From: Hadesarchaea archaeon
GTDB taxonomy: Archaea > Hadarchaeota > Hadarchaeia > Hadarchaeales > WYZ-LMO6
Length of the DNA: 37,843 bases
Direction of reading: 5' to 3'
Assembly: GCA_029259185.1 (NCBI GenBank)
Contig: JAPDJF010000035.1
Span: forward strand, 1-37,843
Shown: positions 1,642-35,863 of the stretch, in pieces
Numbering within the stretch: the first letter of the stretch is position 1
Layout: each line of letters starts with the position of its first letter
Notes under the pieces: generated by a model
What the model saw: the letters and a program-made list of their open reading frames with translations, nothing else
The model's database searches: none
What the model was told of the DNA's origin: nothing
Program-made: the position numbers and the translations under genes

Positions 1642-1841
1642 CTAACTCCGCACGATTTTAGGGAATAATTCTAGCTCTAGTCCGAGCGTTTCGGCAAGCG
1701 TCCTTGTCCTCTTTGGTATCTCGAAAATGATCATCCGATCTCCAACCTCAATGGCATAGATCTTGGAGAGTTCCAGAAGCGCGTCCCTCACACTAATCCG
1801 CTTGTTGACCCCGATCCCCATCAGCCGTTTGAGAAGGAGGC
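1642..1841 (-). pseudogene. C-terminal fragment of an archaeal IS1634-like DDE transposase, with probable element end CCTAACTCCGCA at about 1641
   Basis: ISVRDALLELSKIYAIEVGDRMIIFEIPKRTRTLAETLGLELELFPKIVRS* resembles C-termini of archaeal IS1634-type transposases; cut off at the IS607 junction. Confidence 0.6.
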
Positions 1842-2084
1842 GAGTAACAGTTGCCGATAACTTCACAAATACTAATACAATTGATGGCACTAATGGAAAT
1901 AAAGGAGGCTGCAAAGTACACGAGATTACACCCCATACCCTACGGAAGTACATCGATCAAGGAGTAATAAAGGGAGTGAGAATCGGAAAACATCGTTACG
2001 TGGAGAAGGCGGAGCTGGACAGATTGATGGGAAGCCCGCTTGGGGTGGCCATTTACGCGAGGGTCTCGGCAAAGAAACAACAGG
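1842..2084 (+). repeat. 243-bp inverted repeat, copy 1 (IS607 left end plus 5' tnpA)
   Basis: Reverse complement of 3642-3884; I found one mismatch (2080). Confidence 0.95.
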
Positions 2085-2205
2085 TTCGCTGCAACGGAGG
2101 CTACCGGAAATCCCTGGTATCCGGGGCTCTCCTTCGCGGGGAGCTTGAAAACCGACCTACCATGTATTCGGGTGGAGATATGTTAGGTTATTGGGACCAA
2201 GTGAG
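1845..2205 (+). mobile_element. Miniature IS607-family element: left end, frameshifted 5' serine-recombinase fragment, then putative right end/omegaRNA ending in TGAG
   Basis: Preceded by CGAG; 6-bp subterminal repeats ACAAAT/ACTAAT/ACAATT (1865-1882); HTH + IYARVS fragment; 2085-2205 is hairpin-rich (GCTCTCC-TTCGC-GGGGAGC; ACCTA...TAGGT) and ends GTGAG. Confidence 0.6.
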
Positions 2206-2333
2206 CAACAGGTGACTAGGTGGCCCTCACTTGAACTCCCGCCTGAGACGACGCAAAAAGATATAAATTACTGCCAACACTGCAGCCAAAATGAGGTATT
2301 CGATCGCCCTCGCCAGAGGTTGCACCTCCAAGA

Positions 2334-2528
2334 TCACCTCAACTCGCTCAGGAGGCGTGCAGCACGCTTTCTTCCGAGCAATTTCTCCAGTTCCTGTTCA
2401 GAGCCTTCTCGCCATCGCCTCAGTATTTCCTCCACCTGCTCCACTTGACCCGGGGCGAGATCCCTGACCGCCTTCAGCAAGCGCTTTTTATTCCTCAGCA
2501 CGTCTTCGGGTCTGAAAACCGCACCCAT
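2334..2528 (-). CDS. Small hypothetical helical protein (64 aa)
   Basis: ATG start, charged amphipathic composition like host proteins; no family recognised. Confidence 0.5.
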   Translation of the reverse strand: MGAVFRPEDVLRNKKRLLKAVRDLAPGQVEQVEEILRRWREGSEQELEKLLGRKRAARLLSELR

Positions 2529-2594
2529 ATTTCAAGGTTTCGATTTTGAACCTATTAGGCTTTGGCTCGCCATTCACATGTTGAGCTGGAATAA

Positions 2595-3526
2595 ATGAAG
2601 AAAACCAAGGGAATTGAGATAAAGAAGGTCGGCAACAACTACTACGCATACCGAGTCACGATGGTCTGGGACAAACAGCTCAAAAGGCGGAGGAAGATTC
2701 CCCGCTACCTCGGAAAGTGGATCAACGGGAAGATAGTCCGCACCACGAAGCGCAGACTCGGCGGAGTGTATGAGTTCGGGAACATCGCCTAGTCTGGCAG
2801 GAACTGGAAGACAGTGAACTGAACAAGCTGCTCGAGACGCACTTTCCCAACGTGAGTTCTTCAACGCGCTCATCACGACGGACGAAAAGCTCGTCTACGA
2901 CATGTCTGCGATCTTCAGCTACTCCAAGAACCTCAACCTCGCAAAGCTGGTTTCAAGGCGTGACAAGTTCCTCCTCCCGCGCATAAACTTGCTCCTCGCG
3001 TTCTCGAGATTCAAACGACAACCGTGCTACGTGAGGCTTGTTCCGGGCTCCGTGATGAGCGTGAAGACTCTGCGCGTTTTCGTCGAGGAAATCCGCGATA
3101 AATCGGCTTTTCTGATTCTCGACAAGGGATTTCTCGATCGGCACAACCTCGAGGTTCTGGACGGTGCTGGCTTCAACTTCATCCTGCTCTTGCGCCGGAA
3201 CAGCAGGCTCATCGACTACCGGAAGCGGATGTCCGGATGGTTCATCTTCAGGGGCGAGCCATCAAGTGCACTTCCTATCCTCGCGGGCGGTTCTACGTCT
3301 ACCTCTTTGAAGACATCCTCTGAAAGCCACGGAGGAGAACGAGTTCTACAACCAGAAGGCGAGCGGGGCCTCCCGACCTTCCACTTGGAGTGGGCTGGAA
3401 AGATCGCCCTGATCTCAAACGTCAAGCTCAGGCCCCAAGAAGCGTTTCAACTCTACAAGTCCAGAGACGATATCAAGCGAGCCTTCCATGTGTTCAAGAA
3501 CCTGCTCCAGGCCGACACGCCCCACC
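2595..3526 (+). pseudogene. IS1634-like DDE transposase, N-terminal/central part, with stops and frameshifts
   Basis: YYAYRVTMVWDKQLKRRRKIPRYLGK N-terminus, ILDKGF, LYKSRDDIKRAF; stop at 2790-2792; fused to the IS607 fragment after ADTPHL. Confidence 0.8.
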
Positions 3527-3881
3527 TTCCTGTTCTCGTTCACTCCAGAAGCCACGTCTTCGATTACATCGATAACTTTCAACTTGTTTGTTACGCAGTA
3601 GCTCAGCAGCCTTTCTCTCTGCCTGTTCAGGTTCCCGGCATCCTGCTGTTTCTTTGCCGAGACCCTCGCGTAAATGGCCACCCCAAGCGGGCTTCCCATC
3701 AATCTGTCCAGCTCCGCCTTCTCCACGTAACGATGTTTTCCGATTCTCACTCCCTTTATTACTCCTTGATCGATGTACTTCCGTAGGGTATGGGGTGTAA
3801 TCTCGTGTACTTTGCAGCCTCCTTTATTTCCATTAGTGCCATCAATTGTATTAGTATTTGTGAAGTTATCGGCAACTGTTA
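3527..3881 (-). mobile_element. IS607-family left end plus truncated, frameshifted serine recombinase tnpA
   Basis: MEIKEAAKY...HTLRKYIDQG HTH, IYARVSAKKQQDAGNLNRQ catalytic Ser motif, IEDVASGVNENRK; starts right after TGAG, which contains the ychF stop. Confidence 0.85.
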
Positions 3882-3884
3882 CTC
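3642..3884 (-). repeat. 243-bp inverted repeat, copy 2
   Basis: Reverse complement of 1842-2084. Confidence 0.95.
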
Positions 3885-5085
3885 ACCTTCCCTTAGCTGA
3901 GACGATGGTTATCACGTCCCCATCTTTGAGTTCGTGGTTTTCCCCCACCCTCCGTTTGGTGCGGGCATCAATAGCGTAGATGAACGAGTCTCCGAGTTCC
4001 GAGTGGATGGTGTAGGCGAATTCCCTCGCAGTGGTTCCCTTAGGCACCAAAAAGGCGTCGGGCAACACATTTCCTTTCTTATCGGTCAGCTTGTTTTCGT
4101 CGTCCACGGGGTAAACGGCTATGAGGTTGAGGAGCGTATACACGGCCTTGTCTATGCACTCTTGAACACCGGTGCTTCCCCATTTCTCCAAATACCTCTC
4201 TATGGATTTGAGAGCGTTCGCTTGCTGAGGTGTCAGAGATTCGGGTTTGAGGATCTCGAACCTTGAGTCTCCAGGAGCATAAGATATCAGCCCCTTTTCA
4301 GCGGCTTTCCTGAGCACGAGTTCGGCCTCTGAGCTCGTGGGTATCACGAGACGTCCATTTCCCTTCAATCTCTGCACGTTCTTTTCAGCGGTGCTTATGT
4401 CCATTTTGTTCGCCACGATCATCATAGGTTTGGAGATCCTCCGAAGCTCCCTCGCCAGCGCTAATAACTGGGAGTCCCCCCATGATTCGGGATTAGAAGG
4501 GTCGATTCCTGCTGACCGGATGGCCTGGGTTACTTGAAATTCACCCACACCCAATCCGCTGAGACGCGTGGCGAGTTCTTTCTCTAGAGCGGTTTGGCGG
4601 AGCTTTGCCGAGTGGGCGAATTTCTTCCACCCTCTCGCCAAGATCTCTTTGAGCCACAAGTCTATCTCGTTCTCCAAAGAAGTGACGTCTTCCAGCGGGT
4701 CGTGTGTCCCGGGGGGACATGGTTTTCCGTCTTCATCGGTTGAACCGGCGGCATCCACCACGTGGAGCAGAGCTGCAGCCATGCGCAGGTTGTCTAGAAA
4801 TCGATTTCCAAGACCTCTCCCCGAATGAGCACCTTTCACGAGTCCCGCGACATCGATCATGCGTACCGGGATGTACCTCGTGCCGTTCACACACTTCGAG
4901 TTTTGGGGGTTACACCTCACCTCGAACTCCCTGCACGGACACCGTCCCCGGACGTACGCTATTCCAACGTTTGCATCGATGGTGGTAAAGGGATAGCCCG
5001 CGGTAGGGGCGTTCGCGAGGGTGGCTGCGTTGAAGAAAGTGCTCTTACCGGTGTTTGGCTTCCCGACCAAGCCGAGTTCTATCAT
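3883..5085 (-). CDS. ychF: Obg-family ATPase YchF
   Basis: GKPNTGKST, YPFTTID, DVAGLV, ANKMD, C-terminal TGS domain. Confidence 0.93.
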   Translation of the reverse strand: MIELGLVGKPNTGKSTFFNAATLANAPTAGYPFTTIDANVGIAYVRGRCPCREFEVRCNPQNSKCVNGTRYIPVRMIDVAGLVKGAHSGRGLGNRFLDNLRMAAALLHVVDAAGSTDEDGKPCPPGTHDPLEDVTSLENEIDLWLKEILARGWKKFAHSAKLRQTALEKELATRLSGLGVGEFQVTQAIRSAGIDPSNPESWGDSQLLALARELRRISKPMMIVANKMDISTAEKNVQRLKGNGRLVIPTSSEAELVLRKAAEKGLISYAPGDSRFEILKPESLTPQQANALKSIERYLEKWGSTGVQECIDKAVYTLLNLIAVYPVDDENKLTDKKGNVLPDAFLVPKGTTAREFAYTIHSELGDSFIYAIDARTKRRVGENHELKDGDVITIVSAKGR

Positions 5086-10260: not shown

Positions 10261-10567
10261 TGCTTTGCACAAAAATACCGCAAAAGTCAAATGGACCCCA
10301 AAAGGTCGTGGTTGAGTTGGCCTCCAAGCGATAAGGGCTGAACCCTACGGCCTCCGATCCAAGCCGTGTCGACGAGCTTGAAGGAAACCCCCACCCATCG
10401 CCAGCCTTCCAAGCCAAGCACGGCAGTAGTAAGAGGGCAGCCTCGTTTGCTCTCTCAGAGTCCGGTAATCCTTCTCAAGGGCCTGGGCCGAGGGCTTTCG
10501 GCCCTTAGGGGACCCCGAGCCCCCAAGCACGGAAATTGGCCTCAGGGGCTAATTTTTGTGCAAAGCC
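10261..10567 (+). mobile_element. Miniature non-autonomous TIR element of the same family as 34147-35273 (tnpB mostly deleted, internal piece inverted)
   Basis: Perfect 15-bp TIR GCTTTGCACAAAAAT (10262-10276 / 10552-10566); flanking direct repeat CCCACTATTC (10251-10260 / 10567-10576); segments homologous to both ends of 34147-35273. Confidence 0.9.
10492..10567 (+). ncRNA. Putative omegaRNA scaffold at the element right end
   Basis: 58/60 identical to the reverse complement of 34160-34219; stems GGGC-TTTCG-GCCC, AGCCCC...GGGGCT, CCAA...TTGG; position 3' of tnpB. Confidence 0.55.
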
Positions 10568-31948: not shown

Positions 31949-34138
31949 ATGCATCGATACAAACACGTATCGGACATAGAGAAGTTAATGTGGAAGCCCT
32001 CCCACGTAAGGAACATCGGGATAGTGGCCCATGTCGATCACGGCAAGACGACCTTGACGGATTCGCTGGTGGCAGCTTCAGGCATAATAAGCTTTGAACT
32101 CGCGGGAGAGCAGCTCTTCACAGATTTTCTGGATATTGAACAGCAGAGAGGGATCACCGTCCAAACTTCGGCTGTGAGTTTGGTTCACACACTCGGGGGG
32201 GAGGAATACTTGATCAACCTCCTCGACACTCCTGGACACGTGGATTTCACGGGAGACGTGACGAGGGCTTTGCGTGCTATCGATGGTGTGGTGGTGGTGA
32301 TGGATGCCGTTGAGGGGGTGATGCCTCAAACGGAAACAGTCGTCCGCCAAGCACTCCAAGAGCGCACGAAGCCCGTGCTTTTCATTAACAAGGTCGACAG
32401 GCTCATAGATGAACTTAAACTCCCTCCCGAAGCCATGCAGGCTAGGTTGGCGAAACTTATCTCTCAGTTCAACGAAATAGTGAGGAAATACGCCCCTCCC
32501 GAACTTGCGGAGGGGTGGCAGGTTAAGGTTGAGGAAGGATCGGTGGCTTTCGGTTCGGCTAAGGAGAAGTGGGCCCTGTCCACATCTCAGATGCGGAAGA
32601 AAGGTATCACCTTCAAGGATATCTTAGGGGCTTCACGGGAGGGGGGAAGAGAAGAACTCGCCAAGCGAACCCCGCTCTACGAGGTGGTTTTGGATATGGT
32701 AATCCGCCACCTTCCAGATCCTAGGGAAGCCCAGCGACTCCGTATCCCGATCCTCTGGAAGGGCGATTTGGAAAGTGAATTAGGAAAAGCGATGCTCTCA
32801 TGCGATCCGAAAGGAAAGGTGTGCATGGTCATCACCGATATAATAGTGGACGAGCAAGCTGGGGTTATATCTACGGGGAGGGTTTTCTCAGGAACGCTGG
32901 AGAAAGGGAAGCCGGTGAGATTGGTTGGGTCGAAGCAGGAGGCCAGAGTTCAGCAAGTTGGGATCTACATAGGACCAAAGAGAGAGATAGTTGAAAAGGT
33001 TCCCGCAGGGAATATCGCGGCGATAATAGGGATGAAGGAGGCTTACGTGGGGGAGACACTCGTGGAAGCCGGGGTCGAGGGGGAAGGATTCGAAGAACTC
33101 AGGTACATAAGTGAACCCGTCGTCACCGTGGCCGTGGAACCGAAGAACTTCCAAGACTTACCCAAGCTCGTGAACTTCCTCAGTAAAATAGCGAGAGAAG
33201 ATCCCAATGTGAGGGTCAAAATAAACGAGGAGACGGGTGAATACTTGGTCTCCGGGATGGGAGAGGTCCACTTGGAGATAGTGGAGTACAAACTCAAGGA
33301 GGCTGGGCTGGAGATCAAAACCTCGGAGCCATTGGTGGTCTACAGAGAGACGATTGTGGGGAAGGCTGGACCCGTCGAGGGTAAGTCCCCGAACAGGCAC
33401 AATCGATTCCAGATAAGTGTGGAGCCCCTAGAGCAAGAGGTTCTGAAGGCTATCGACGAGAAAGTGGTTAAGACCAAGCAGGACAACAAGGAGCGCGCAC
33501 GAATCTTGAGGGATCTCGGCTGGAGCGCGGATGCTGCCAAGAATGTGATGGCGGTGGTTGGGGGGAACATCTTAGTAGACATGACTAAGGGTGTGCAGTA
33601 CATGCGGGAGGTGGAGGACTATATCGTGGAGGCCTTCAGCCAGGTGGCCAACGAGGGTCCCGTAATGAGGGAGCCGATGAGGGGAGTCAAAGTATTGATC
33701 AACGATGCGGTTCTTCACGAGGATTCCGTCCATCGTGGCCCAGCACAGATCATACCCGCGGTTAGACGTCCAATCCAAGCGTGCGTGCTCCTAGCGAATC
33801 CCGTGATCCTCGAACCTCTATTTAAGTTGGAGGTGCATGTCCCAACGGAGTTTATGGGTGGGGCAATAAAGGTGATCCAAGGGAGGAGAGGGAGGATCGT
33901 GGCCATGGAGCCGGAGGGGGAGGCTACTACGGTCATCCGGGCCCTGCTTCCGGTGGCGAACTCCTTCGGTCTTGCGGCAGAAATGCGTTCGGAGACGGAG
34001 GGGAGAGCGATCTGGGCCACCGAGTTCGAACGTTTTGAGCGTTTGCCCCCTGAACTCCAGAGCCAAGTGATCTCGAATACAAGGAAGAGGAAGGGCATGA
34101 GCCCGGAGCCCCCGAAGGCTGAAGAGTTTATGGAGTGA
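31949..34138 (+). CDS. fusA: Translation elongation factor 2
   Basis: AHVDHGKTT, RGIT, DTPGHVDF, NKVD, GMGEVHLE, diphthamide loop HEDSVHRGPAQ. Confidence 0.97.
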   Translation: MHRYKHVSDIEKLMWKPSHVRNIGIVAHVDHGKTTLTDSLVAASGIISFELAGEQLFTDFLDIEQQRGITVQTSAVSLVHTLGGEEYLINLLDTPGHVDFTGDVTRALRAIDGVVVVMDAVEGVMPQTETVVRQALQERTKPVLFINKVDRLIDELKLPPEAMQARLAKLISQFNEIVRKYAPPELAEGWQVKVEEGSVAFGSAKEKWALSTSQMRKKGITFKDILGASREGGREELAKRTPLYEVVLDMVIRHLPDPREAQRLRIPILWKGDLESELGKAMLSCDPKGKVCMVITDIIVDEQAGVISTGRVFSGTLEKGKPVRLVGSKQEARVQQVGIYIGPKREIVEKVPAGNIAAIIGMKEAYVGETLVEAGVEGEGFEELRYISEPVVTVAVEPKNFQDLPKLVNFLSKIAREDPNVRVKINEETGEYLVSGMGEVHLEIVEYKLKEAGLEIKTSEPLVVYRETIVGKAGPVEGKSPNRHNRFQISVEPLEQEVLKAIDEKVVKTKQDNKERARILRDLGWSADAAKNVMAVVGGNILVDMTKGVQYMREVEDYIVEAFSQVANEGPVMREPMRGVKVLINDAVLHEDSVHRGPAQIIPAVRRPIQACVLLANPVILEPLFKLEVHVPTEFMGGAIKVIQGRRGRIVAMEPEGEATTVIRALLPVANSFGLAAEMRSETEGRAIWATEFERFERLPPELQSQVISNTRKRKGMSPEPPKAEEFME

Positions 34139-34146
34139 TCAGCGAG

Positions 34147-35273
34147 GGCTTTGCGCAATTAGCCCCTGAGGCCAATTTTCGTGCTTGGGGGCTCGGAGTC
34201 CCCTAAGGGCCGAAAGCCCCACGCTTCCGTCCCTGGGGCAGTGGCCTAGGAACCTCTTTCCTATGTTTACGGCTCCGTTGAGGTCGGCGTTGTACTCCAG
34301 CCCACACGACGAGCATTTGAAGAAGCCTTGAGAGACCCTTCGTCCTTCGTTTCCACAGCGGTGGCACGTTCGGCTGGTGTACGCCTCGCCGGCGCACGCC
34401 ACGCGGACCCCTTCCGAGCCTTGTACTCGATGTACCTCGACAGCCGGTGGTGGGGCATCGAGTGCAAGATGCGCTTGAGCTTCCCTTTGCCCGCTTGTGG
34501 ATTCCCTTCAGGTCCCCTATCACGATGATCGAGTTTCGCTCCTTAGCTTCGCTGACGATAGCCTTCGAGATCTTGTGGCACAGGTCGTCTATTCGCCGGC
34601 TCCTTCCCGCCTACCCGATCGATCACTTTCAGCAATTTCTTTTCTCCAAGCCGCTTTCGGAGCCACGTAATGACGCCTTATCCCCCTTGCTTCCTTCCCG
34701 TAGAGCTTGGGGGAGGTGATGTTGGCCTCCTTCTGCAGCGCCACAGACGCCGCGAGAAAGCGCTCCCCCAAGTCCACTGCGGGGACGCCGGAGGGATGCA
34801 TCGGCTTGACCCTACGCTTGACCGTGAGGTGGAGGAAGAACCTCCCGTTGCGGTGGACGAGCTGTGAGTCGGAGAGCTCAACCCTACCCGAGGAGAGAAG
34901 CTCCTCGTGGGAGCGCCACATCCGCAGCGGGCACCAGATGCGCATACAAGGTTGAAACGGATACGAAAAACCTGGCGAACCTGTTTCCGGTTTCGGTGAG
35001 CTTGAATGAGTCCTTATCGATGAGGATGGGAGCCTTCCGCCTGTCCCCGGCCTTCCAAGCTAAAGCACGGCAGTAGTAGGAGGCAGCCTCGTTTGCTCTC
35101 TCAGAGTCCGGCCTCTCAAGGGCCTGGGCGCGATCCCACGCTTGGAGGTCCTCCAGAAGCTTGCGCTTGAACCGGGTGAGGCCGTAGAGTTCAGCCCTTA
35201 TCGTCTTGGAGGCCAACATCGAACGTGGTCCGTCGGAACCATTTTAAGTTTTCCGGTATTTTTGTGTAAAGCG
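34147..35273 (-). mobile_element. TIR-bounded, TSD-flanked element whose only cargo is tnpB plus a right-end scaffold
   Basis: Ends ATTTTTGTGTAAAGC (35258-35272) and degenerate GCTTTGCGCAAT (34148-34159); direct repeat GATCAGCGAG at 34137-34146 and 35273-35282. Confidence 0.88.
34220..35219 (-). pseudogene. tnpB: TnpB RNA-guided nuclease, multiply frameshifted (3' limit approximate)
   Basis: Pieces in different frames: MLASKTIRAEL, AVDLGE (RuvC-I), IGDLKG, LSRYIEYKA, EAYTSRTCHRC, FKCSSC, NADLNGAVNI (RuvC-III). Confidence 0.92.
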
Positions 35274-35329
35274 ATCAGCGAGAAAACACCTTTTTAAAGC
35301 CCCCGAGTTCAGTTCCCATAAGGAAGAAG

Positions 35330-35863
35330 ATGGAGGCTTTAGCGAAAGCCCGGCTCTACAAGGATAAGGCGGTGGTCTGGGAAGAGGGTCAAGCCAACCA
35401 GCTGTATCAGCGAGGAGTTTTCGGAAAGCCATTGAGTGGGGGAAAACTTCAGCTCGCTCCAGTTGAAGTTCTTTACTTGGTGGAGAACGGAAAGTTGGAG
35501 GTGGTGGAGGGAAAGTCGGAGAGACCGATTTCCTTCGAGAAGTTGTGGGCGAGGTTCTCGAAGTCCGATCCAGATCTCATGCTGAAGTACAGGGTGTACT
35601 CAGACCTTAGATCGAGGGGATACGTGGTAAAAACCGGACTCAAGTTTGGTGCTCACTTCAGGGTCTATGGGAGAGGAGAAAAGCCAGGGGAGGTCCACTC
35701 AAGATACCTCGTTCACGCGATACCGGAAGGGACGAAGTTCACCCCTTCCGAACTCGCCAGGGCTGTGAGGTTAGCCCATTCGGTCAGGAAGACGATGTTT
35801 TTTGCCGTAGTTGACGATGAGGGAGATGTGACTTATTACTCCCTCAGGAGGGAAAAGCCGTGA
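35330..35863 (+). CDS. endA: tRNA-splicing endonuclease, short single-unit type
   Basis: VYSDLRSRGY, KTGLKFG, FRVY...HS, AHSVRK (Tyr/His/Lys triad present); TTTTTAAA box at 35291-35298. Confidence 0.93.
   Translation: MEALAKARLYKDKAVVWEEGQANQLYQRGVFGKPLSGGKLQLAPVEVLYLVENGKLEVVEGKSERPISFEKLWARFSKSDPDLMLKYRVYSDLRSRGYVVKTGLKFGAHFRVYGRGEKPGEVHSRYLVHAIPEGTKFTPSELARAVRLAHSVRKTMFFAVVDDEGDVTYYSLRREKP

Follow-up and report, generated by a model that had tools for sequence, protein, structure and literature searches.

The window analysed here is a contig of 37,843 nucleotides (nt) from a Hadesarchaea archaeon (JAPDJF010000035.1, assembly GCA_029259185.1), and our subject is a decayed tnpB gene within it whose catalytic half, at 34270-34790, had been singled out in a preliminary description made from the sequence alone. 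This stretch is likely to be the nuclease half of a mobile element of 1.13-1.16 kb, present here as a dead copy, whose sole gene encodes a TnpB with an alternative catalytic glutamate, and which was not autonomous but lay within ends of the IS5 type and was moved in trans. The catalytic rearrangement is already published and is common in archaea, and both the residence of TnpB within DDE-type ends and the movement of solo TnpBs in trans are known in outline from the main text of PMC10691335. An IS5-type partner with 9-bp duplications in archaea is a new example of this kind, as far as the main texts of the literature searched are concerned, supplements aside. The boundaries, repeats and catalytic residues described below are read directly from the DNA; nuclease activity, the limits of the guide RNA, the target-adjacent motif (TAM) and mobilisation in trans are what we infer from them.

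The sole intact copy found in the source genome (G000; 54 contigs, 1.27 Mb, 94.9% complete, with the window as contig C15) is a paralogue of 361 amino acids (aa) at G000:C1:38425-39507, and its numbering is used throughout. Four motifs of the window copy fall in different reading frames, inside or at the edge of 34270-34790, all on the minus strand. RuvC-I reads AVDLGE at 34763-34780, with a DLG rather than a DPG triplet and a catalytic Asp equivalent to Asp153, and IVIGDLKG at 34503-34526 places a Gly (Gly240) at the canonical position of the RuvC-II Glu. The alternative Glu (Glu286) lies in GEAYTSRTCHRC at 34355-34390, six residues ahead of the first zinc-finger CxxC; the second CxxC is found in FKCSSCG at 34301-34321, and RuvC-III reads NADLNGAVNI at 34262-34291, its Asp corresponding to Asp320. 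These readings bear out the preliminary description, which had reported intact aspartates in RuvC-I (AVDLGE) and RuvC-III (NADLNG), a Gly at the RuvC-II Glu position and a Glu at the usual Pro position before the zinc finger. In the paralogue the corresponding stretches are SVIVIGDL and AGEAYTSRTCHRCG, which contain both the Gly and the Glu of the window copy, while the size of 330-350 aa that had been predicted for the ancestral protein falls short of the 361 aa of the intact one.

When the paralogue is aligned by phmmer with solved Cas12f chains, Gly240 takes the position of their catalytic RuvC-II Glu, and Glu286 that of the canonical Pro found just ahead of (Y/H)TSQ. In an AlphaFold model of the paralogue (pLDDT 83.5, pTM 0.78), strand 235-241 ends at Gly240, and strand 281-285 is followed directly by Glu286. 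The predicted RuvC triad would consist of Asp153 (RuvC-I), Glu286, just past the fifth strand, and Asp320 (RuvC-III, NADLN), with Glu286 standing in for the Glu that canonically closes the fourth strand, where this family has Gly240.

The layout extends well beyond the two copies. A homologue search in a collection of 5.8 billion proteins returned 728 proteins at E <= 1e-5, and in an alignment of the intact paralogue with the best 120 of these 728, Asp153, Glu286, Asp320 and each of the four zinc-finger Cys are found in 121 of 121 sequences and Gly240 in 120 of 121. The Gly, the Glu, both Asp and the four Cys are likewise invariant columns of a 36-row alignment. Directly after the RuvC-I Asp, 98 of the 121 sequences have L, 22 have I and one has P. 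The alternative Glu (Ealt) has been defined as lying six residues before the first CxxC, with the expression D{P}G x(120,160) E x6 CxxC x(12,18) CxxC x(4,8) D (PMC10711439). In the intact paralogue this published expression fits residues 153-320, and it also fits 115 of the 120 homologues; its DPG form matches one of the 120 homologues and not the paralogue.

A profile search of 1.84 billion representatives gave 586 matches at E <= 1e-30, and the position six before the zinc finger was read in the best 150 of these 586. It is Glu in 42 of ranks 1-50 (Pro 1, other 0, unreadable 7), in 29 of ranks 51-100 (Pro 6, other 2, unreadable 13) and in eight of ranks 101-150 (Pro 23, other 7, unreadable 12). 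Because the residue shifts from Glu to Pro as rank falls, the alternative-Glu proteins form the near family and canonical TnpBs are the next neighbours. Canonical TnpB paralogues in the same genome provide an internal control and read VLENL, NPHNTSK and DRDVNA. Of the family loci listed, 75 of 80 come from archaea, and the Gly/relocated-Glu layout is ancestral to a large, mainly archaeal family. Another TnpB-like open frame of the genome, of 483 aa (G000:C11:26006-26761), has a canonical RuvC-II Glu (AFEGI) and reads EASRHLVTSWN at the RuvC-III Asp position; this protein may be rearranged in RuvC-III or inactivated.

Relocation of the catalytic Glu has clear precedents. Major TnpB clades have a rearranged RuvC-II, and the largest of them, RIIr-5, has Gly in place of the Glu, with a second Glu elsewhere making up for the loss; the RuvC-III motif of 'derived' TnpBs is NADxN (PMC10691335). 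Proteins named TnpB2 have an alternative Glu some 45 residues downstream of the canonical site (PMC10530073), and the spacing from Gly240 to Glu286 in the present family is 46. The view in the preliminary description that a Gly with a relocated Glu marks Fanzors and their related TnpBs agrees with published accounts of this layout in Fanzors and a subset of TnpBs (PMC10530073, PMC10691335, PMC10711439). With the alternative-Glu TnpBs (TnpB2, RIIr and especially RIIr-5, Ealt) the present TnpB has in common a non-acidic RuvC-II residue, a Glu about 45 residues downstream, NADxN and a C4 zinc finger, as well as a size in the range of 340-380 aa and an archaeal host. TvTnpB, an archaeal TnpB2 from Thermoplasma volcanium, cuts DNA with the TAM NTGAC; it belongs to an IS605 element with a Y1 TnpA (PMC10530073), whereas the element described here has IS5-type repeats and 9-bp duplications and is without a transposase.

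By analogy with such enzymes, the intact paralogue would be an active RNA-guided double-strand endonuclease. It could be argued instead that loss of the canonical Glu inactivates the family, leaving an RNA-guided binder or regulator, and many TnpB lineages have been inactivated and repurposed (PMC10691335). We consider this unlikely, since the three acidic positions and the zinc finger are invariant across the 121 sequences and since published Ealt enzymes cut DNA, the mutation E467A of the alternative Glu in the Fanzor ApmFNuc abolishing activity (PMC10530073). Furthermore, inactivated lineages are mostly immobile (PMC10691335), whereas the gene considered here sits in a multi-copy mobile element.

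By profile and by fold, the family belongs with TnpB and Cas12f. The intact paralogue scores 170.2 bits against NCBIfam guided_TnpB (cut-off 100) and 82.3 bits (2.6e-23) against Pfam Cas12f1-like_TNB (cut-off 26.3), and falls just below the cut-off of 30.5 for OrfB_IS605, at 28.8 bits. Compared with solved proteins, the family profile gives E-values of 5e-29 for Cas12f, 7e-13 for ISDra2 TnpB and 1.3e-11 for the mimivirus Fanzor2, while the value of 0.21 for the Guillardia Fanzor1 is not significant. A Foldseek search places Cas12f first (TM-score 0.64), with ISDra2 TnpB at 0.52 and Fanzor2 at rank 33 (0.48). Cas12f (AsCas12f, OsCas12f) is thus the best match of the family in sequence and fold among solved structures, at a similar size and with the same RuvC and zinc-finger core; it differs in its canonical RuvC-II Glu and its association with CRISPR, there being no CRISPR array in the case of this element.

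The preliminary description had proposed an archaeal parallel or relative of the Fanzor1-transposon arrangement. The parallel stands as an analogy; the kinship does not, given the DLG triplet and the contrast between Cas12f and Fanzor1 in the profile comparison. Fanzor1 and Fanzor2 resemble this TnpB in their alternative Glu, and many of them occupy cut-and-paste transposons with inverted repeats and duplications. The TnpB differs from them in reading DLG instead of DPG, in being without insertions or an added N-terminal region, and in its archaeal host. DPG at RuvC-I is the second hallmark of Fanzors and almost confined to them, and the text of PMC10711439 describes pro-Fanzors with both features solely from cyanobacterial IS607 elements. 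Judged by its sequence, the protein lacks this defining feature and is an ordinary alternative-Glu TnpB. Its surroundings, namely genes for EF-2, a tRNA-splicing endonuclease and a tRNA synthetase as neighbours in the window and IS5-type ends with no cyanobacterial IS607 setting, are not those of a Fanzor or pro-Fanzor.

We therefore regard it as very unlikely that the protein is a true relative or forerunner of the Fanzors and that its element is homologous to Fanzor1 transposons. A pro-Fanzor would have in common with it the Glu six residues ahead of the zinc finger, and many Fanzors are, like this TnpB, carried in elements with inverted repeats and duplications that are tied to a DDE transposase (PMC10711439, PMC3627910). 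These likenesses are set against the near absence of DPG from the homologues, the profile and Foldseek rankings given above, and the published observation that a rearranged RuvC-II arose in several clades (PMC10691335).

The nature of the element is evident from its copies. A blastn search with the intact copy found element sequence in 25 places on 17 contigs of the genome, all starting or ending at the same two boundaries. The intact unit measures 1155 bp (G000:C1:38407-39561), extending 54 nt ahead of the start codon and 15 nt past the stop, and its ends are inverted repeats, CGCTTTGCACAAAAAT on the left and, when reverse-complemented, GGCTTTGCACAAAAAT on the right, which match at 15 of 16 terminal bases. 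In the window, blastn of the intact copy sets both boundaries of a whole, decayed TnpB-only copy of 1127 bp on the minus strand (34147-35273, compared with the intact one by pairwise alignment). The left terminal inverted repeat of this copy, about 16 nt long, is CGCTTTACACAAAAAT (35258-35273, minus strand), and its right repeat is the decayed variant GGCTTTGCGCAATTAG (34147-34162, plus strand). A 9-bp target-site duplication, ATCAGCGAG, borders the copy at 34138-34146 on the right-end side, where it takes in the final base of the EF-2 stop codon, and at 35274-35282 on the left-end side. Each complete copy is bordered by its own, different 9-bp direct repeat. Repeat pairs with a 9-bp duplication (at most one mismatch) number eight in this genome and 31 unique pairs overall, counting this genome, its relatives and metagenomes. 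Many copies are internally deleted, and in vent metagenome contigs from four runs the element ends reach 10-14x the depth of the flanks and the middle about 3x, with internally deleted forms present.

The repeat was found 28 times in the genome, in no case next to a transposase gene, and the element itself has no room for one. The same ends do accompany transposases elsewhere. The repeat in its exact 18-nt version occurs in at least 116 metagenome stretches, and 83 occurrences were examined there and in two viral contigs; 18 of the 83 have a mate with a 9-bp duplication, delimiting elements of 99 to 4700 bp. Among the 116 metagenome stretches listed, an IS5-family DDE transposase adjoins the repeat in nine and tnpB is present in none. 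Two of the metagenome elements are complete, contain a transposase and have perfect duplications (L148, 4700 bp; L184, 2760 bp). Their transposases match Pfam DDE_Tnp_1 and score 125-127 bits against NCBIfam transpos_IS5_2, below its cut-off of 140, and their best plasmid matches, at about 23% identity, are annotated as the IS5-like ISAba12/ISAba10 family. Homologues of these transposases at 41-45% identity were found in four of 41 genomes (this one and 40 relatives), one of them 53 nt from a repeat match.

A complete Fermentimicrarchaeum genome contains both kinds of element with the same repeat. A 6843-bp element (L271), bordered by the perfect duplication CGATAGAAC, encodes an IS5-type transposase, a methylase-like gene and other passengers, and it is accompanied in that genome by a TnpB-only element of 1140 bp (L034, TnpB 42% identical) and a 187-bp miniature. 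The 6843-bp element was found by a protein search; an examination of repeat spacing had shown no autonomous element. At L034:7051-7062 the right inverted repeat contributes an ATG with which the frame of the neighbouring ABC-ATPase gene could begin. No element with both genes was found, as none of 19 transposase loci holds tnpB, and the relatives' loci around solo repeats are likewise without tnpB and include only one long repeat pair, with a methylase-like gene. In a same-order genome, a 3185-bp element (L122:318-3502) is enclosed by the same inverted repeats, outside which lies a perfect 9-bp duplication; its sole long gene encodes a 981-aa protein with an N6-methylase motif (NPPF), without transposase or tnpB. 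These ends appear to ferry restriction-modification-like cargo besides TnpB.

As the element has no transposase of its own and its ends are common to IS5-type DDE elements, we infer that it is non-autonomous and is mobilised in trans. It is probably a cargo element in which tnpB takes the place of the transposase of an IS5-family (IS903-like) transposon. TnpB itself was considered as the mover and rejected, because these ends are also met around IS5-type transposases where tnpB is missing; the repeat is present in 16 genomes of relatives, and eight of these give no match to the TnpB family at E <= 1e-10. The preliminary description had placed the gene in an element with terminal inverted repeats and compared it with the TIR/DDE transposons of Fanzor1, and the inverted repeats, the target duplications and the cognate DDE transposase at the same ends are all in agreement with this.

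The IS903 subgroup of the IS5 family comprises elements of 950-1150 bp with inverted repeats and 9-bp duplications (PMC8431375). The present ends resemble IS5/IS903 in element size, terminal inverted repeats, a DDE transposase and duplication length; they differ in that the transposase scores under the cut-off, with the low identity to bacterial members given above, and in that the window element encodes TnpB instead. The transposon family is a candidate member of the IS903 subgroup. The first bases of the IS903 end may resemble these ends too. Among published TnpBs, the DDE-associated branches DDE-1 to DDE-6 (DDE-6 being linked to IS630) are comparable, and include solo TnpBs with the same ends as transposase-bearing elements, implying mobilisation in trans (PMC10691335). 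These branches and the element described here both have TnpB inside symmetrical inverted-repeat ends and solo TnpBs that share the ends of transposase elements. IS630 is the sole partner named in the main text of PMC10691335, whereas the partner here is an IS5-family enzyme with 9-bp duplications.

Within the genome, candidates for the partner transposase were rejected on the basis of their ends, and its two DDE_Tnp_1 genes both have ends of another kind. An insertion sequence (IS) of about 2 kb at 1835-3888 of the window has long, different inverted repeats. Its inverted ends of at least 60 nt start GGTGAGTAACAG, it carries a 294-aa DDE_Tnp_1 gene at 2902-3786, and miniature derivatives of about 450 bp built from its ends are present on contigs C5, C8, C10 and C26. 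An IS1182-like gene on contig C51 was also set aside, as it and its relatives have other ends. This contig of 1358 bp is one open frame of 448 aa, an IS1182-like transposase (DUF772 and DDE_Tnp_1) cut at both ends, and a 94%-identical copy in a same-order genome also lies on a tiny contig; C51 is probably a multi-copy insertion sequence that breaks assemblies.

The association of TnpB with these ends is not confined to Hadesarchaea. In Micrarchaeota, in Fermentimicrarchaeum and in an uncultured archaeon, TnpB relatives at 33-42% identity share this repeat and have 9-bp duplications. The closest relative (62% identity, Hadesarchaea) likewise has a 9-bp duplication, with another repeat.

The right end of the element is predicted to encode the scaffold of a guide RNA (omega RNA). 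In the window copy this region, with three hairpins predicted from folds of copies and relatives, corresponds to 34147-34241 on the minus strand. The fold of the final 238 nt in the intact copy is better than those of shuffled sequences (z = -2.77), and three hairpins are found in six of seven right ends folded singly, comprising two copies from this genome and four relatives; a fifth relative (L073) gives an ambiguous fold. The last hairpin forms between an upstream segment and the inner portion of the inverted repeat, with a tip of 6 nt left over. In the relative whose terminal repeat is of another kind, the 5' arm of this hairpin differs as well and matches that repeat. Neither the intact nor the window locus has an Rfam match at E up to 1, a look-up of RNA runs listed none with the element, and RNAalifold on a MAFFT alignment of the right ends, which is not a structural alignment, gives no usable consensus.

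Transcription running from the 3' end of tnpB across the right end would yield the guide RNA, with its last scaffold hairpin built from the inverted repeat. The guide proper would begin at the element boundary and consist of the variable 9-bp duplication followed by flanking DNA. A guide of this composition would match the unoccupied site, so that the nuclease could recognise it. The RNAs of Fanzors in inverted-repeat transposons offer a parallel, as the inverted repeat is there part of the guide-RNA scaffold (PMC10711439), much as predicted for the last hairpin here. The Fanzor scaffold also absorbs the duplication (PMC10711439), whereas in the present element the 9-bp duplication varies between copies and could be guide alone.

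Directly outside the left duplication of the window copy, 32 nt before the start of the tRNA-splicing endonuclease gene, lies a T-rich, TATA-like motif, TTTAAAAAGGTGTTTT (35283-35298, minus strand). The four bases before the left-end duplication are T-rich in all eight duplicated insertions of the genome (TTTC in four, TTTT in two, TTTG and CTTT in one each), namely those at window 35283-35298, C1:39561, C1:49388, C1:67904, C4:34772, C6:2902, C11:5037 and C15:10261, and most have a TAAA-like box a few bases further upstream. No T-rich motif is found beyond the right end in these eight. Since IS5-type copies in relatives show the same motif, it is probably a preference of the transposase; it may also serve as the TAM.

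With mechanically called open reading frames (ORFs), eight of eight insertions have the start of a host ORF at 8-59 nt from the left end and directed away from it, compared with two of eight on the right-end side and 1878 of 5000 random positions. All eight insertions have one orientation, and together with the T-rich motif and the nearby ORF starts this suggests oriented insertion just upstream of promoters. The Fermentimicrarchaeum TnpB-only element L034 is a counterexample to this gene-start placement.

Taken further, and as a tentative proposal that we think possible without holding it to be likely, the TnpB-only elements may be an independently evolved archaeal counterpart of Fanzor1 transposons. 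The nuclease would serve a family of IS5-type DDE elements in trans, with a scaffold built from the repeat and a guide drawn from the 9-bp duplication, and the T-rich motif would be both target of the transposase and TAM. Unoccupied sites could then be recut and refilled, and miniatures that retain the right end would act as stand-alone guide genes for the single intact nuclease.

Several observations weigh against the reading of this locus as a TnpB-only cargo element of an IS5-type transposon. Firstly, the cognate IS5-type transposase was not found in this 94.9%-complete assembly (neither of two candidates scored), and the element may not be mobile at present. Nor do the contigs of the four metagenome runs include an empty site, that is, a contig joining both flanks without the element. 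Secondly, a same-order genome contains relatives of about 40% identity that resemble IS605 elements in having hairpins at their ends and lacking duplications, and one homologue (P0098) carries a Y1 transposase domain, so that the link to IS5-type ends holds for part of the family only. In a quick tree of 38 rows, which left out four rows identical to others, rows with internal stops and partial matches, the inverted-repeat members fall into three well-supported clades on an unresolved backbone, and IS5-type ends may have been captured once or several times. Thirdly, the intact copy has a run of five Ts inside the last right-end hairpin, where transcription in archaea could stop ahead of the guide. 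Finally, the window copy is a pseudogene without an open reading frame from which a protein is impossible.

The second group of observations could be taken as signs of an ordinary IS200/IS605 (IS1341-type) unit that depends on a Y1 TnpA for its movement and whose inverted and direct repeats are coincidental, and the genome does hold Y1_Tnp remnants. We regard this as highly improbable. IS200/IS605 elements are described as having neither inverted repeats nor duplications (PMC3119063), and such an identity is rejected here on account of the inverted repeats and 9-bp duplications at hand, with eight duplicated repeat pairs in this genome and 31 overall and with the same ends flanking IS5-type DDE transposases.

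The decay of the window copy can be followed in detail. According to the ORF list and a three-frame translation, tnpB is split over three frames of the minus strand and lies between the EF-2 gene, ending at 34138, and the divergent tRNA-splicing endonuclease gene, starting at 35330; a tRNA synthetase gene is also present in the window. The pseudogene runs from its start codon to the native TAA stop at 34159-35219 (minus strand), with eight frame-shifting deletions and one in-frame deletion of 3 nt. In pairwise alignment the copy is 93.6% identical to the intact paralogue element, with 72 substitutions over 1127 aligned bases and ten deletions (3, 5, 1, 2, 2, 2, 4, 4, 2 and 3 nt), eight of them breaking the frame inside the gene. 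The ten differences in length between window 34147-35273 and G000:C1:38407-39561 are without exception losses of 1-5 nt in the window copy, with no insertion among them, so that the decay of this pseudogene is strongly biased towards deletion. With so many changes, the Gly and the Glu might be accidents of decay from an ancestor with canonical ExL and PxxTS, but this is almost certainly wrong, as the intact 361-aa paralogue has both residues and nearly all homologues share them and match the Ealt expression. Canonical EDL and PxxTS in intact homologues, which the preliminary description had named as the sign of decay, are not what these homologues show, and the pattern is not a product of decay.

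The wider interest of the locus lies in a compact, 361-aa alternative-Glu TnpB that has replaced the transposase inside IS5-type ends, with an autonomous and a TnpB-only element paired in one complete genome and with many miniatures. This provides a simple prokaryotic system for the partnership of an RNA-guided nuclease with a DDE cut-and-paste transposase and variable duplications, which has so far been approached mainly through eukaryotic Fanzors. It also indicates that a Fanzor-like active site and a Fanzor-like transposon context can arise without Fanzor kinship. Additionally, the intact paralogue and its thermophile-associated relatives are candidate small genome-editing nucleases, published relatives of this type having been reported to be without collateral cleavage.

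Short derivatives of the element are found in the window as well. At 10261-10567 (plus strand) lies a 307-bp miniature that combines the two ends of the element with an internal piece in inverted orientation and is bordered by a perfect 9-bp duplication, CCACTATTC. Four copies of this form occur in the genome, three of them on other contigs with the same architecture. The in-frame fragment that the preliminary description had noted near 10400-10489 is real and is part of this miniature, window 10417-10491 on the minus strand translating to SAQALEKDYRTLREQTRLPSYYCRA. Further repeat families of 250-450 bp, with 82-99% identity between copies, are present in the genome and unrelated to the TnpB element, among them C1:61667-61993 with three other copies and C1:92737-93123 with four.

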